DNA from: Phycisphaerae bacterium | GTDB taxonomy: Bacteria; Planctomycetota; Phycisphaerae; UBA1845; Fen-1342 | Assembly (NCBI GenBank): GCA_050115495.1 | Contig: JASFQK010000002.1 | Span: forward strand, 96,001 to 160,000 | Reading direction: 5' to 3' | Length of the DNA stretch: 64,000 nt | Part shown: one piece after another, positions 38,854 through 43,207 of the stretch | Numbering within the stretch: the stretch's first letter is position 1 | Layout of the letters: every line of letters starts with the position of its first letter | Program-made: the position numbers and the translations under genes | The notes under the pieces: model-generated | What the model was told of the DNA's origin: nothing | Database searches by the model: none | Seen by the model: the letters and a program-made list of their open reading frames with translations, nothing else

Positions 38854-40536
38854 TCATCCCATGCAGCCGGGCTCGAGCTTCTCGAAGAGGATCGCCGGCT
38901 CGGCCAGCGCGTGCCCGGCGGGCAGCGGGGCCGGCACTTCCCAGTGTATCTCGTCGGCGGGCTGCCCGAGCATGCCCAGCAGCCGACGGGCGGCCCCGGG
39001 CATGAACGGGTAGATCATCACGGCCAGGTGTTGCACCGCGTGGATGCAGGTGGCGATGGTGGCAGCGCAAGCCGGCAGATCTTCCTTCCGCGTTCGCCAG
39101 GGCTCTCGGAGACTGAAGTGTTCGTTGCCGAGGCGGGCGTAGCTCATCATCTCTTCGAGGGCGGCCCGGTAGCGGTGCCCCTCGATGTGCGCGCCGACGC
39201 GGGCCAGGGCCTCGCCGCCACGGGCGATATGGGCCCGGTCCTGGTCGGTCTGGGCGTCGGCGGACGGAACGCGGCCTTCGAAGTAGCGGACGGCGAAGGC
39301 CAGCGTGCGGTTGATGAAGTTGCCGAGGGCGGCGACGAGTTCGCTGTTGTTGCGCTGGACGAAATCAGCCGGGTCGAAGGCGGTGCGGGCCGTCTCCGGG
39401 GCGATGGCGGTCAGGTAGTAGCGCAGGGCGTCGGCGTCGAAACGCTTGAGGTACTCCTCGATCCAGACGGGGGAGTCCTCGGGTGTGCGGCTCTTGCTGA
39501 CCTTTTCGTCCTCGCCGCCGAGGCGGAAGTTGACGAAGTTGTTGGCAACGACCGCGTGCGGAAGCTGGTGCCGGCCGTCGGCCATGAGCATCGCCGGCCA
39601 GATCAGGGCGTGAAAGACCGTATTGTCCTCGCCGATGAAGTGCGTGATGTGCGTTTCGGGGTCGCACCACCACTTCTCGTATTCCTGCCAGTTGCCGGCG
39701 GTGTCCTCGCAGAGCTGGGCGGTGAACGAGATGTAGCCGATCGGGGCGTCGAACCAGACGAAGAGCACCTTGCCGGTAGCGTCGGGATCATCGAGCGGGA
39801 CGGGGATGCCCCACGAGATGTCGCGGGTCATGGAGCGCTCGGGCAGTCCCTGCTTGATCTGGCCGAGGGCGAAGTTCAGCACGTGTGGGCGCCACTGGCC
39901 CTGCTTCGATTCGAGCCACTCGCGCAGGGGTTGCTCGAACTTGTGCAGGCTGAGGTGCCAGTGGGTCGTTTCGCGGACGATGGCCGGCACGCCGGTGATC
40001 TGGCTGACCGGTTCGATGAGCAGCAGGGGGTCGATCATCTGCCCGCAGTTGTCGCACTGGTCGCCGGTGGCGCCGGGCGTGCGGCAGTGGTGGCAGGTGC
40101 CGCGGACATAGCGGTCGGGGAGGAAGCGCTCGGCCTGCGGGTCATAGAGCTGCTTGGTGCGGAGCTTGGTGAAGAAGCCCTGCTCGTGGATGCGGCTGAA
40201 GAATTCCTGACTGAACCGCTCGTGCATCTGCTGGTAGCCGGGCTGGTGCGTGCCGCCGTAGACGTCGAACTCGACGCGCAGGCCGGCGAAATCACGAAGC
40301 TGCCGGTCGTGAAATTCGGTGGAGATGTCCTGGGGCTGTCGCTTGGACTTCACGGCGGCGATCTCGATGGCCACGCCGTTGTCATCGCTGCCGCAGATGA
40401 AACGCACCTCGCGGCCACAGGCCCGCAGGTAGCGGACGAAAATGTCGGCCGGCAGGTACGCGCCGGCTATATGGCCGACATGCAGGCGGCCGTTTGAATA
40501 GGGCAATCCCGCCGTTACCAGATATCGACTGGGCAT
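38854..40536 (-). CDS. metG: Methionine--tRNA ligase (no C-terminal tRNA-binding appendix)
   Basis: PYSNGRLHVGH, Zn-knuckle CxxC pairs, VWFDAPIGY, KVSKS. Confidence 0.95.
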   Translation of the reverse strand: MPSRYLVTAGLPYSNGRLHVGHIAGAYLPADIFVRYLRACGREVRFICGSDDNGVAIEIAAVKSKRQPQDISTEFHDRQLRDFAGLRVEFDVYGGTHQPGYQQMHERFSQEFFSRIHEQGFFTKLRTKQLYDPQAERFLPDRYVRGTCHHCRTPGATGDQCDNCGQMIDPLLLIEPVSQITGVPAIVRETTHWHLSLHKFEQPLREWLESKQGQWRPHVLNFALGQIKQGLPERSMTRDISWGIPVPLDDPDATGKVLFVWFDAPIGYISFTAQLCEDTAGNWQEYEKWWCDPETHITHFIGEDNTVFHALIWPAMLMADGRHQLPHAVVANNFVNFRLGGEDEKVSKSRTPEDSPVWIEEYLKRFDADALRYYLTAIAPETARTAFDPADFVQRNNSELVAALGNFINRTLAFAVRYFEGRVPSADAQTDQDRAHIARGGEALARVGAHIEGHRYRAALEEMMSYARLGNEHFSLREPWRTRKEDLPACAATIATCIHAVQHLAVMIYPFMPGAARRLLGMLGQPADEIHWEVPAPLPAGHALAEPAILFEKLEPGCMG

Positions 40537-40572
40537 CGCTCGCCTCACTCCTGGGGAGAAACTGCTGCGCGG

Positions 40573-40601
40573 ATGGTACGCACCGTGGCGGCGGTCTGCA
40601 A
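40573..40601 (-). promoter_or_regulatory. sigma70-type promoter of metG
   Basis: TTGCAG-N17-TACCAT. Confidence 0.6.
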
Positions 40602-40640
40602 TGCGGTCGGACCGCGAGGCCGGTCGGTGTCGTGTGCACC

Positions 40641-40695
40641 AAGAAAAAGGAGCGCGTCAATCCACTACCCGGTGGGGTCGTGGGTTCACGCGCTC
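40641..40695 (-). terminator. Long-stem terminator of unit P1
   Basis: GAGCGCGT/ACGCGCTC outer stem plus inner stems, then CTTTTTCTT. Confidence 0.7.
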
Positions 40696-40752
40696 GGGGC
40701 AGCCGCCGGGAGGCGGCGCCCCCGCGAATTCCGGTTCGCCAGCAGGTGACTG

Positions 40753-40863
40753 CTAGGCGATGAGGTCGGTGCTACCCGACAGGTACCACCAGATGACGAC
40801 GGCGCCAACGGCGATCCAAACCCAGGACCACCATCCGCTGAAGATCGGCAATTCGTTAATCAT
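40753..40863 (-). CDS. Small Trp-rich membrane peptide P1 (36 aa) MINELPIFSGWWSWVWIAVGAVVIWWYLSGSTDLIA
   Basis: GGAGG SD 6 nt upstream; promoter TTGGCG-N17-TACCAT at 40978-41006; homologous to P2 and P3. Confidence 0.75.
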   Translation of the reverse strand: MINELPIFSGWWSWVWIAVGAVVIWWYLSGSTDLIA

Positions 40864-41036
40864 CACATTCCTCCATTGAATGCGAAGCCACTCGCCCGAG
40901 CCCGCCCACCGCAGGCGGGATCGGCGGCAGCAGGGCTCCGTGCCGCACGCGGCACCACGGTGCATCCTGCGCTAAACATGGTACGCGACGGGCGACAGCG
41001 CGCCAACGCCGCGGCGGCGGGCGGGGCCGGGTGAAG

Positions 41037-41088
41037 AAAAAAGGCACGCGCCGATTCGCCGTCAGGCGACGGCTGATCGACGCGTACC
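41037..41088 (-). terminator. Long-stem terminator of unit P2
   Basis: GGTACGCGTCGAT..GCCGTC/GACGGC..ATCGGCGCGTGCC then TTTTTT. Confidence 0.75.
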
Positions 41089-41129
41089 GTCGGCGCCGCC
41101 GAAGCGGCGCGATGCTCGTTCGGCTGGCT

Positions 41130-41216
41130 TTACAGGAGGTTCTGCCCGGTGAGCAGGAACCACACCACCACGATGCCGCCGACAACCACGAGCCACCACC
41201 ACCAGTTGCTGAACAT
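41130..41216 (-). CDS. Small Trp-rich membrane peptide P2 (28 aa) MFSNWWWWLVVVGGIVVVWFLLTGQNLL
   Basis: GGGAG SD 7 nt upstream; promoter TTGCAC-N17-TAATAT at 41375-41403; absent from the ORF track. Confidence 0.75.
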   Translation of the reverse strand: MFSNWWWWLVVVGGIVVVWFLLTGQNLL

Positions 41217-41454
41217 CGAAACACTCCCTGCAATCTTGTACCACTCGCCTCGGCCCCCGCCGCGCTGACGGGGTAACACCGAGCCGCGATTCACGATGAG
41301 ATAGAACACCGGACGTGCCGGCGGAGCCGCGAACGACCCACATTCGGGCAGGCCGGCCGCCGATTCGCCAGAAAATATTACCCAACCGGCAAAGAACGTG
41401 CAATGGGTGGAAGGCCGGCAAGGTTACCGCCCGGGGGCGTGCCCCGCGGGGGCC

Positions 41455-41502
41455 AAAAAGGACGCGTCGAGCAATTGCCCACTGGCAGTTGATCGACGCG
41501 TC
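41455..41502 (-). terminator. Long-stem terminator of unit P3
   Basis: GACGCGTCGA/TCGACGCGTC outer stem plus inner stem, then CTTTTT. Confidence 0.75.
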
Positions 41503-41550
41503 GGGTGTTCGCGCCGCAGGAGCGGCGCGACGCCAGGTCAGGATGCGGCA

Positions 41551-41631
41551 CTAGGCAGCGAGCAGCCAGTAGGCCACGAGGAAAATGCCGCCGAAAATCA
41601 ACCACATCCACCAGTTGCCGAAGAAATCCAT
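41551..41631 (-). CDS. Small Trp-rich membrane peptide P3 (26 aa) MDFFGNWWMWLIFGGIFLVAYWLLAA
   Basis: GGAGAG SD; promoter TTGACG-N17-TAGCGT at 41711-41739; absent from the ORF track. Confidence 0.75.
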   Translation of the reverse strand: MDFFGNWWMWLIFGGIFLVAYWLLAA

Positions 41632-41771
41632 GTTCTCTCTCCAAACATGTAACGAACCACTCGCTCCGGTCCCGCCGCGCCGACGGGTCTAACCTCGGCG
41701 ATTACTAAACACGCTAGTCACGCAGAGCCTCGCCGTCAACAGGTCGAGGCCACAAACTGCGCGCGCCTCCC

Positions 41772-41835
41772 AAAAAGAGAGCCCCGTCCGGCGATTAGCG
41801 CCTCCGGCCAATTCGCCGGAGTGTCGAGACGGGGC
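41772..41835 (-). terminator. Terminator-like structure of unit P4
   Basis: GCCCCGTC/GACGGGGC outer stem, inner CGGCGA/TCGCCG, then TCTCTTTTT. Confidence 0.6.
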
Positions 41836-41924
41836 ACCGTCAAGTGCCACCCGCGCGTTCCGCGGGGGGCTACCTGACGGACCTTGACTGGCGCGACACT
41901 TGTCGTCGCGCTTCGACGGTTGCT

Positions 41925-42005
41925 TTAGAAGAACGCGTTGTACGCCCACACGCCGGTGAACGCCGCGACCGCCGCAACCAAGAAATCAACGAACCAAGTC
42001 CACAT
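41925..42005 (-). CDS. Small hydrophobic peptide P4 (26 aa) MWTWFVDFLVAAVAAFTGVWAYNAFF
   Basis: AGGAGA SD; same leader hairpin as P2/P3; -35 TTGACG at 42104-42109 with a weaker -10. Confidence 0.7.
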   Translation of the reverse strand: MWTWFVDFLVAAVAAFTGVWAYNAFF

Positions 42006-42292
42006 CGTGTCTCTCCTGTGCAGATCTGATTCGTGTCCGTCCTGCCGCGCCGACAGGTCGACCCGGACACAGTTGCTATCATTTACGCTACTTACGAGAA
42101 TGTCGTCAAGGACTGCGCCCCCTTGTTTTTCGTATATTCTGGAGCTTGTTGGACCGCGGTTTGCTACGTCCCGCCGGCAGTCGCGACCCTTTTCTCCCTC
42201 GCGCATCGGCCCGCAGCCGGTCGCCAGGGCCGTTTTGCAGCGCCCGCCGTGCGGCGACCACGTAACCCGCTCCGCCCGCACCGGAGACCCAT

Positions 42293-43207
42293 ATGCCCGA
42301 AGAAAGACGGAAACTCGTCATCGGCGTCGGCGAACTGCTCTGGGACTGTTTTCCCGATTGGCGCCGCCCAGGCGGGGCTCCGGCGAACGTGGCCTTCCAC
42401 GCCAGCCAGCTCGGTCTGGCCGGGGCGATTTGTTCCGGCGTGGGTACGGACGCCGGCGGTGACGAACTCGTCCGCTACGTCGGCGAACGCGGTCTGGACA
42501 CGCGCTGGATCCAGCGCGACCCGCATCATCCCACTGGCACGGTCACCGTCGACACGACGCGGCCCGAGCACCCGACGTACGTGATCCACGAAAACGTGGC
42601 CTGGGACTTCCTGCAATTCGACGAGCCGTCGGCCGAGCTGTTTGCCGCCGCCGCCGTCGTCTGCTACGGCACGCTCGCCCAACGCTGCGCTGCGAGCCGG
42701 GAGACGATTCGGCGGGCGCTGACGGCGGCGGAGCAGGCGCTGCGCGTGTACGACGTGAACCTGCGCCCACCATGGTACACCGCGGAGATCGTCGCCGAGT
42801 CGCTGCGTCTCGCGCACGTCGTGAAGCTCAACGCGGATGAGGTGGGGGAACTAGGCAGACTGCTCTCATTGCCGGCGGATCCGCCGGAGGGATTTGCCGC
42901 TGCGCTAAGGGAGCGCTACGGCGTGCGGCTGGTGTGCGTTACGCGCGGGGGACGCGGGTGTCTGCTGCTGTCGGAGACGGAACGGGTGGACGTAGCGGGC
43001 AGGCCGGTGGAGGTTGTGGACGCGGTCGGTGCCGGGGACGCGTTCACCGCCGCCCTGAGCTACGGGCTCGTGCAGGGTTGGCCGGTAGCGCGGGCGGCGC
43101 ACCTGGCGAACGAGGTCGGCGCGCTCGTGGCGGGACAAGCCGGTGCGATGCCGGTGCTGGGCGAGGCGCTGGCGGATGCGTTGCGGCGGTGTGCTCCTGG
43201 TACGTAG
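42293..43207 (+). CDS. PfkB family carbohydrate kinase (fructokinase-like)
   Basis: GELLWD, PGGAPANVA, DVNLR, VKLNADE, VDAVGAGDAF. Confidence 0.92.
   Translation: MPEERRKLVIGVGELLWDCFPDWRRPGGAPANVAFHASQLGLAGAICSGVGTDAGGDELVRYVGERGLDTRWIQRDPHHPTGTVTVDTTRPEHPTYVIHENVAWDFLQFDEPSAELFAAAAVVCYGTLAQRCAASRETIRRALTAAEQALRVYDVNLRPPWYTAEIVAESLRLAHVVKLNADEVGELGRLLSLPADPPEGFAAALRERYGVRLVCVTRGGRGCLLLSETERVDVAGRPVEVVDAVGAGDAFTAALSYGLVQGWPVARAAHLANEVGALVAGQAGAMPVLGEALADALRRCAPGT

Follow-up and report, generated by a model that had tools for sequence, protein, structure and literature searches.

Tandem genes for small hydrophobic peptides follow a conserved leader stem-loop in the metG–pfkB spacer of a Phycisphaerae bacterium

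Introduction

What occupies the 1.75-kb spacer between metG and a pfkB-family gene in a Phycisphaerae bacterium, and how might it act? The window that we analyzed is a stretch of 64,000 nucleotides (nt) from this genome (GenBank assembly GCA_050115495.1, contig JASFQK010000002.1, positions 96,001 to 160,000 of the forward strand), and all coordinates below are positions within it. Read on the minus strand, the metG–pfkB spacer holds four self-contained units, each with a single small open reading frame (ORF). A sequence-only reading of the window had proposed that these units are either type I toxin–antitoxin-like loci or an undescribed family of regulatory microproteins.

We find that the units contain genuine, conserved, and previously unnamed microprotein genes in structured, self-contained transcription units, as that reading had held, but its type I toxin–antitoxin interpretation was not supported. 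The explanation that we favor, with moderate confidence, is that the array consists of self-contained genes for small membrane proteins under the control of a conserved element in the 5' untranslated region (5' UTR).

Results

Four units with a common anatomy

From 5' to 3', each unit comprised a promoter-like site, a stem-loop leader, a GGAG Shine-Dalgarno (SD) sequence, an ORF, and, on the 3' side, two hairpins and a U-run. The four minus-strand ORFs encode peptides P1 (40753-40863; 36 amino acids), P2 (41130-41216; 28 amino acids), P3 (41551-41631; 26 amino acids), and P4 (41925-42005; 26 amino acids), which are uncharged, Trp-rich, and hydrophobic. Re-reading the DNA reproduced the ORF positions and peptide sequences of the sequence-only reading, as well as its stop-codon spacings of 377, 421, and 374 bp, and its remark that the peptides lack Lys and Arg holds for all four. 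The most conserved element of the array, which that reading overlooked, is the stem-loop of the 5' leader. The array is real and not a chance pattern, because a covariance model of the leader matches all four units and a profile of the peptides matches P1, P2, and P3.

A conserved stem-loop leader

About 53-56 nt before each start codon lay the hairpin CCCGUCGGCGCGGCGGG, followed by AGUGG. An outer stem, in most cases formed by CGUUUCGG and CCGAAGCG, surrounded this inner hairpin. The apical CGGCGCGGCG was essentially invariant, being present in at least 38 of 40 distinct sequences, and the conserved bases of the leader sat in the GC stem and triloop, not in junctions. The spacer between the leader and the SD sequence was short, A/U-richer, and variable in sequence.

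First, in a seed alignment of 18 leaders, which was structured by hand, 83.3% of cells paired and 11 of 16 base pairs changed on both sides, compared with 4.4 in shuffles (0/500). Second, among 42 matches aligned to the covariance model, a fitting that itself favors the structure, 87.9% of cells paired versus 32-59% when the partner column was slid, and 13 of 16 pairs showed compensatory changes versus 5.3 expected, with 0 of 500 shuffles reaching 13. Third, the outer stem covaried freely, as in Unit 4, where GUGUCCG/CGGACAC is wholly unlike the consensus but keeps the pairing, and the lower inner stem showed swaps of C-G to U-A and alternation between U·G and C-G (26 versus 14). Because of the outer-stem covariation, the inner-stem swaps, and the U·G/C-G alternation, we take the conserved element to reflect RNA pairing rather than a DNA palindrome. 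Covariation thus argues for a bipartite stem-loop that would act as an RNA structure.

In this genome (5.97 Mb, 67% GC), the covariance model (R1) matched all four units, with E-values from 1.3e-12 to 1.7e-7, and nothing else. Across the organism's own family in the Genome Taxonomy Database (GTDB), the leader was found in 33 of 72 genomes (this one, G000, included) and 19 of 40 genera, in one to four copies and always at one locus per genome. A sample of the order gave matches in 14 of 32 genomes from the same family and in 1 of 118 genomes outside it, the latter being marginal (E 9e-4). No family in Rfam 15 fit the leader: four matches appeared at E-values up to 10, none of them on the leader in the sense orientation, and the best scored 13.6-20 bits against gathering scores of 44-75 (rydB, at the top, scored 20 bits against 50).

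Interchangeable ORFs behind the leader

We analyzed the ORFs behind 40 of the 42 leader matches, having dropped L098, a named metagenome-assembled genome record identical to a unit of G020, and a partial match in L019. All 40 leaders led to a terminal GGAG and then an ATG or GTG, with a gap of 6-9 nt in 38 cases and of exactly 7 nt in 24, and all 40 opened an ORF of 26-54 codons. Every one of these ORFs contained a hydrophobic run, of 15-35 residues overall, of at least 18 residues in 32/40, and of 15-28 residues in P1 to P4. The partial leader of L019 likewise preceded a small hydrophobic ORF. An exact-pattern scan of metagenome contigs recovered nine loci (some of them duplicates), in which 14 of 14 leaders preceded Trp-rich peptides; a looser pattern returned at least 119 loci, of which one (L098) was a true cassette after filtering, and is uninformative about global distribution.

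Many of the encoded peptides were Trp-rich and uncharged like P1 to P3, others joined a polar N-terminus to a single transmembrane segment and carried a tail such as WRFF...GG(N/S)DD, and some fit neither type. In other genera, the same leader preceded unrelated small membrane ORFs, some of which contain Arg. Copy number also differed between related genomes, from one to four units in tandem. Because the leader is near-invariant while the peptide behind it drifts and is even replaced, we infer that the leader is the regulated element of the cassette.

Some array ORFs had no leader that the model could detect, and leader counts therefore underestimate array size. Additional small hydrophobic ORFs of this kind lay about 100-450 nt past the second unit at L165 and L166 (genomes G004 and G006), and others at L186 (G009) and L183 (G029). 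They include MLKWFFDGTTGSVIGFVLVALLYIFAFSQTGWLQLQ, MFFGIGDGTWYWNVLVLVILGVFVYVLFGNVTIA, and, in G009, a further copy that is preceded by an SD sequence only.

A narrow family of Trp-rich peptides

Searches with P1 to P4 at E-values up to 10 in Pfam returned only Spore_YhaL (E 1.2) and SoxE_N (E 0.017), both sub-threshold and unrelated, and NCBIfam gave no match. The ESM Atlas likewise held no usable match. By contrast, a profile (A2) built from 14 sequences, with the consensus xxNWWxWLxxGGIAxVxYxLLTG, matched P1 to P3 at E-values from 1e-9 to 1e-11. With this profile, family members turned up in 11 of the 71 other genomes from the organism's GTDB family and in none of 207 genomes from the order's ten other families. 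When 400 other genomes evenly sampled across the phylum were searched, 5 scored, with at most 22.6 bits and within ORFs of 498-690 codons; these five matches were taken as chance transmembrane segments in long ORFs. A profile search across Planctomycetota had been named as a check by the sequence-only reading, and its outcome is that the family was confined, in the genome samples, to the organism's own GTDB family. The peptide family is thus real but narrow.

Among 1.84 billion protein representatives, the profile matched 12 at E-values of 0.001 or better, all of 29-67 amino acids and none part of a larger protein. The longer members owed their length to over-extended gene calls running through the leader: public calls for P0004 (window 41130-41309), P0001, P0007, and P0010 run to 53-67 amino acids from an upstream GTG or ATG and mask true products of 28-36 amino acids. 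For ten clusters that were looked up, the public labels included three of 'hypothetical protein' and one of 'TatA', and one family member carries the NCBI label Planctomycetales.

The TatA label belongs to P0005, a metagenome relative that is publicly named 'Sec-independent protein translocase protein TatA'. A short hydrophobic helix at the N-terminus and a Gly-containing turn after it are common to both families. We rejected this identity: there was no match to PF02416 at E-values up to 10, the peptides lack an amphipathic helix, and comparison of the profile with the genome's real TatA gave a probability of 7.5%. A canonical TatA is encoded elsewhere in the same genome.

A DNA search of relatives detected units with 71-75% nucleotide identity that kept a small ORF with the peptide, as for MWSNWWWWLVFGGIAVVVYFLLTGQNLIT, which aligns with P2 (MFSNWWWWLVVVGGIVVVWFLLTGQNLL), and other genomes of the genus carried tandem sets of two to four ORFs. 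This search, which found 25 of 61 genomes at E-values of 0.01 or better, has been superseded by the profile and covariance-model searches; most of its matches outside the family were about 22-54 nt long, with E-values above 1e-3, and were taken as chance.

Selection on the peptides and presence in an RNA library

Codon-level conservation, on which the sequence-only reading had staked the reality of the genes, was found in the Trp-rich peptides, where synonymous changes exceeded non-synonymous ones. In seven same-length peptide pairs, pooled over small numbers of sites, the proportion of non-synonymous differences (pN) was 0.085 compared with a proportion of synonymous differences (pS) of 0.23, and differences at the three codon positions numbered 22, 20, and 43. 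Two close Trp-rich pairs differed by 5 synonymous versus 1 non-synonymous and by 4 versus 1 changes. As judged from these codon changes, purifying selection on the Trp-rich peptides is shown. In SD spacing, hydrophobicity, and pN < pS, P1 to P4 fit the generic class of small, predicted single-pass membrane proteins.

These results leave little room for chance ORFs. GC-rich spacers are rich in spurious open frames, and such frames need not be genes, but we find this reading scarcely credible here, where the peptide is kept across genera at so low a DNA identity, the distance from SD sequence to start codon is constant, the third codon position holds an excess of differences, and covariance-model E-values fall to 1e-12.

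Parts of the array are present in an RNA library. One assembled contig from a wetland metatranscriptome was 100% identical to 41195-41353, which spans the Unit 2 leader and the first codons of its ORF, and another was 100% identical to 41531-41986, which spans the end of the Unit 4 ORF, the Unit 4 terminator, and all of Unit 3. A third contig, from another organism, matched the leader core only, with 2 mismatches. No contig in the run covered metG, pfkB, Unit 1, or the ORF and 3' part of Unit 2, which marks a gap in the contigs and not silence of these genes. Little of the stretch is represented in runs X4 to X6. In another wetland run (X3), a DNA contig of a related population carried an in-frame 3-nt deletion in P2 (window 41193).

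Could the transcript itself be the effector, as a small regulatory or dual-function RNA whose apical loop pairs with targets and whose ORF is secondary? The leader is far more conserved than the ORF, the transcripts would be short (about 250-420 nt) with two 3' hairpins as in many small RNAs, and RNA-library contigs cover parts of the array. We nevertheless consider this improbable, as an intact ORF follows the leader at fixed SD spacing in 40/40 and 14/14 cases, this ORF is always hydrophobic, synonymous changes outnumber non-synonymous ones in the Trp-rich peptides, and a genome-wide search for target complementarity found none; these points tell against a pure small RNA, while a dual function is conceivable.

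Evidence bearing on a type I toxin–antitoxin system

In the type I reading, the peptides would be membrane-depolarizing toxins, and an unseen antisense or trans-acting small RNA would restrain their structured mRNAs. Several features of the array are those expected of such loci: the ORFs are small, hydrophobic, and single-pass and lie in highly structured mRNAs, tandem copy number varies from one to four between related genomes, the peptides diverge rapidly in sequence, and the distribution within the family is patchy (33/72 genomes). Against this stand a number of observations. First, a promoter pattern that scored in 21 of 40 units in the sense direction scored in 0 of 40 in the antisense direction, a pattern-based result that extends to the related units the failure of the sequence-only reading to find an antisense promoter, and the terminators have no A-run on their upstream side and hence are not bidirectional. 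Second, complementarity to the leaders elsewhere in the genome was limited to scattered 14-mers, as expected at 67% GC, with no extended stretch. Third, no toxin family in Pfam matched at E-values up to 10, and basic residues, which are typical of many toxins, are missing from the Trp-rich peptides. Fourth, the predicted accessibility of the GGAG was middling and not consistently low, with a mean predicted unpaired probability of 0.45 and values above 0.5 in 16 of 40 units, and the predicted folds of the 40 units contained no conserved pairing that masks the SD sequence. Finally, the locus is syntenic and chromosomal and lies beside housekeeping genes. We therefore regard a type I system as unlikely; the alternative that the sequence-only reading also offered, a regulatory microprotein family, fits better, and the leader also precedes unrelated small membrane ORFs. 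A search of those parts of the full-text literature that were accessible to it found no description of type I systems in Planctomycetota.

Promoters and 3' ends

The four pairs of promoter hexamers listed in the sequence-only reading were all present but weak, and promoter support comes from relatives instead. Thirty of 40 units had TTGAC at a distance of 58-65 nt on the upstream side of the leader loop, and 21 of these also had a good -10 box, commonly nAGAAT. Because of this conserved promoter position, the outer stem would lie within about 10 nt of the likely start of the transcript.

At the other end of the units, the terminators described previously were borne out: the 3' regions of all four fold well beyond shuffled sequences (z-scores from -4.7 to -5.4, with 0/200 shuffles as good), into a first hairpin and then a long hairpin with a U-run. 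A simple terminator scan, which allowed loops of 3-8 nt, missed them because their loops exceed this limit. The first hairpin covaries and begins 20-40 nt after the stop codon, and the base of the terminator stem (ACGCGUCGAUC...) is kept across genera. We rejected the idea that the terminator is a dispersed repeat element, as the genome has 24 copies of the 11-mer of its base and 3 loci with the long inverted repeat.

Neighboring genes

Downstream of the array, and co-directional with it, lies metG, which encodes methionyl-tRNA synthetase (38854-40536, minus strand; Pfam PF09334, E 4e-131). The same arrangement, with metG downstream of the cassette on the same strand, was found in 18 of 30 loci. 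In 16 of these 18, metG had its own promoter-like motif, TTGCnn-N16-18-TA[CG][CGT]AT, which ended 30-43 nt before the ATG and included an exact TACCAT in 11; in the window, the metG promoter-like site (40573..40601, minus strand) consists of TTGCAG, 17 nt, and TACCAT.

This arrangement raises the possibility that the small ORFs are leader-peptide attenuators, which with their terminators would control read-through into metG or sense the supply of tryptophan. The position of the cassette directly upstream of metG in the 18 loci, the runs of Trp codons in the Trp-rich peptides, and the terminator after each ORF would suit such a role. The motif that metG keeps between the cassette terminator and its start codon speaks against it, as do the absence or extreme scarcity of Met codons beyond the initiator, the mismatch between Trp runs and a Met enzyme, the other peptide types without Trp runs behind the same leader, the distance between the stop codon and the first 3' hairpin, the lack of any conserved alternative pairing with the ORF, and the 12 of 30 loci that have no metG within reach. 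We consider attenuation very improbable.

Upstream, the array is flanked by the divergent pfkB-family kinase gene (42293-43207, plus strand; Pfam PF00294, E 1.8e-46), which adjoined the cassette in none of the other 28 loci examined. The upstream neighbor was most often a divergent GT2 glycosyltransferase of about 340 amino acids, in 13 of 29 loci (L167, L168, L169, L173, L175, L177, L179, L180, L182, L185, L187, L188, L192), some of them without metG; this count is a lower bound, as in the 6 of 29 loci without a Pfam match the longest frame may be on the wrong strand. A co-directional PF10672 methyltransferase stood there in 7 of 29 loci, and PfkB (this genome), UvrD, and DUF2203 once each. 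We infer that the four-unit array is a local amplification, by duplication, of one ancestral cassette that stood upstream of metG, between it and the GT2 gene. Several peptides end in Thr-rich tails; any functional link to the GT2 enzyme is wholly speculative, and the two may be neighbors because their gene order was inherited from a common ancestor.

Tandem, diversified small ORFs are also typical of precursor arrays for secreted or modified peptides such as bacteriocins and ribosomally synthesized and post-translationally modified peptides. Here, however, the neighbors (GT2, PF10672 methyltransferase, PfkB, UvrD, DUF2203, and metG) included no modifying, export, or immunity gene, the peptides had no recognizable leader or cleavage motif, and each is essentially one uncharged transmembrane segment, which makes a precursor role most unlikely.

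Features of the individual units

All features in this section are on the minus strand, and stems P1 and P2 denote the outer stem and inner hairpin of the leader. Unit 4 begins with a promoter-like site (42080..42109; TTGACG, 18 nt, TAAATG), the -35 element of which occupies the position of the conserved TTGAC of relatives and which fails the strict scan. Its leader stem-loop (42033..42070) has the divergent stem P1 given above and CCUGUCGGCGCGGCAGG as stem P2; the covariance model matched 42013-42085 (E 1.7e-7), and the minimum-energy fold shows both stems. The SD sequence and ORF of P4 (MWTWFVDFLVAAVAAFTGVWAYNAFF) occupy 41925..42016, with the GGAG at 42013-42016, and a peptide 62% identical to P4 is present in G001. 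The 3' hairpins and the terminator with its U-run (41772..41924) had a fold z-score of -5.41, with 0/200 shuffles as good.

The Unit 3 promoter-like site (41711..41739) consists of TTGACG, 17 nt, and TAGCGT, with TTGAC 58 nt upstream of the leader loop. Its leader stem-loop (41662..41700) has the typical stem P2, followed by AGUGG, and the covariance model matched 41639-41715 (E 1.3e-12). The SD sequence and ORF of P3 (MDFFGNWWMWLIFGGIFLVAYWLLAA) lie at 41551..41642, with the GGAG at 41639-41642 and a peptide-profile E-value of 1.7e-10. Hairpin A and the terminator follow at 41454..41550, where the base ACGCGUCGAUC...GACGCGU precedes the U-run (z-score -5.34).

In Unit 2, the promoter-like site (41375..41403; TTGCAC, 17 nt, TAATAT) is about 110 nt upstream of the leader stem-loop (41246..41286), which the covariance model matched at 41224-41301 (E 8.4e-11) and for which the minimum-energy fold shows stems P1 and P2. 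The RNA-library contig of this unit extends to 41353, downstream of the promoter-like site. The SD sequence and ORF of P2 occupy 41130..41227 (GGAG at 41224-41227; peptide-profile E 1.2e-11), orthologues of P2 are found in G004, G005, and G006, and hairpin A and the terminator with its U-run lie at 41037..41129 (z-score -4.74). The 5' region of this unit (41287-41374, about 110 nt) is unusually long and contains an extra GC-rich hairpin between the promoter-like site and the leader.

Unit 1 has a promoter-like site at 40978..41006 (TTGGCG, 17 nt, TACCAT), which the strict scan missed, and a leader stem-loop at 40893..40926 with a variant stem P2 (CCCGCC UGCGGUG GGCGGG). The covariance model matched it at 40871-40947 (E 7.4e-8). 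The SD sequence and ORF of P1 (MINELPIFSGWWSWVWIAVGAVVIWWYLSGSTDLIA) lie at 40753..40874, with the GGAG at 40871-40874 and a peptide-profile E-value of 1.9e-9, and the 3' hairpins and terminator with its U-run at 40640..40752 (z-score -4.93). An extra hairpin is present at 40941-40975.

Discussion

How might the cassette work? In the account that we favor, each unit would be transcribed from a sigma70-type promoter into a short, stable, and well-translated mRNA for a single-pass membrane peptide, with translation presumably driven by the GGAG about 7 nt before the ATG. The peptides would insert into the cytoplasmic membrane and act on the membrane or on a membrane complex, perhaps by modulating a complex, by altering membrane properties, or by mild toxicity. 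The leader stem-loop would be the controlled element that sets the amount of peptide. It may be recognized sequence-specifically by a protein, an RNase, or an RNA, may act as a 5' stabilizer, or may combine stabilizer and control site.

Several points weigh against this account. First, the peptides are known here from their genes, and their translation is a prediction. Second, a strict scan of 40300-42500 for the sigma70 consensus found 0 promoter-like sites. Third, the single-sequence folding energies of the four leaders are not significant (z-scores from -0.1 to -1.7), and Unit 3 lacks the consensus structure in its minimum-energy fold, so that covariation is what speaks for the structure of the leader. 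Fourth, three pairs of peptides that are not Trp-rich had pN/pS of about 0.5-0.8, a sign of weak selection. Fifth, the RNA evidence consists of assembled contigs, from which strand, transcript ends, and level cannot be read, and DNA may be present in the library. Sixth, 39 of 72 family genomes, some of them incomplete, had no leader match, from which it follows that the cassette is probably dispensable. Finally, the placement of the conserved bases in a stem and tight loop instead of junctions argues against a small-molecule aptamer, and no binder is indicated.

A bolder version of leader control is possible but doubtful: the leader may represent a cis-regulatory RNA of a new class, either a sensor or a dedicated protein-binding switch, that gates interchangeable membrane-active peptides. 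The RNA might then form a conserved chassis with an exchangeable and rapidly evolving peptide as its payload, an arrangement that would need no antisense RNA, and the whole could conceivably be a module of toxin-like or stress-effector type that its own 5' UTR controls.

Genes for small membrane proteins under a conserved 5'-UTR element, our preferred reading, would add to a poorly studied lineage a family of unannotated small proteins and an RNA motif that is absent from Rfam. Gene callers miss these ORFs or over-extend them through the leader. A near-invariant leader in front of unrelated peptides suggests that the 5' UTR is what selection acts on, and the array may offer a clean system in which to study control of small membrane peptides that does not depend on antisense RNA. 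If the peptides prove to be membrane-active, toxin-like modules would be extended to Planctomycetota. Searches of Pfam, NCBIfam, Rfam 15, the ESM Atlas, and a portion of the full-text literature brought up no counterpart of the cassette.

How does the array compare with known systems? Chromosomal type I toxin loci occur in tandem copies in Ldr/Rdl, Ibs/Sib, Zor/Orz, and AapA/IsoA. They and the units described here have in common tiny hydrophobic ORFs, 5' and 3' hairpins, variable numbers of tandem paralogues, and a narrow range. The array differs in that one leader is shared by unrelated peptides at a syntenic housekeeping locus, in that antisense promoters and toxin-family matches were not found, and in that its Trp-rich peptides have no basic residues.

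In enterobacteria, the stand-alone small membrane proteins AcrZ, MgtS, MgrB, KdpF, and CydX modulate larger membrane proteins. Like the peptides of the array, these proteins have 25-50 amino acids and a single transmembrane helix, are prone to omission from annotation, and may be made from short dedicated transcripts. By contrast, the array has no linked partner gene, multiple fast-diverging copies, an uncharged N-terminal Trp cluster, and a strongly conserved 5'-UTR structure.

Two further likenesses concern the leader. The 'Downstream-peptide' motif (glutamine-II riboswitch) is a conserved RNA motif upstream of a short ORF. Like the leader, it is a structured 5' element recognized by its covariation, and a very short ORF always comes after it, but the conserved bases of the leader lie in a GC stem and triloop, and its distribution is one bacterial family with one locus per genome. 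The 5' UTR of ompA exemplifies a 5'-terminal stabilizer hairpin. The leader shares with this type a stable stem-loop at most about 10 nt from the predicted transcript start, an unstructured spacer, and a strong SD sequence; a pure stabilizer, however, requires structure and not sequence, whereas the apical CGGCGCGGCG is invariant in at least 38 of 40 leaders. The array thus belongs to a known kind, small membrane-peptide genes in structured mRNAs, and stands apart from its other members in the lack of any antisense sign, in a fixed housekeeping locus, and in a leader common to unrelated peptides.

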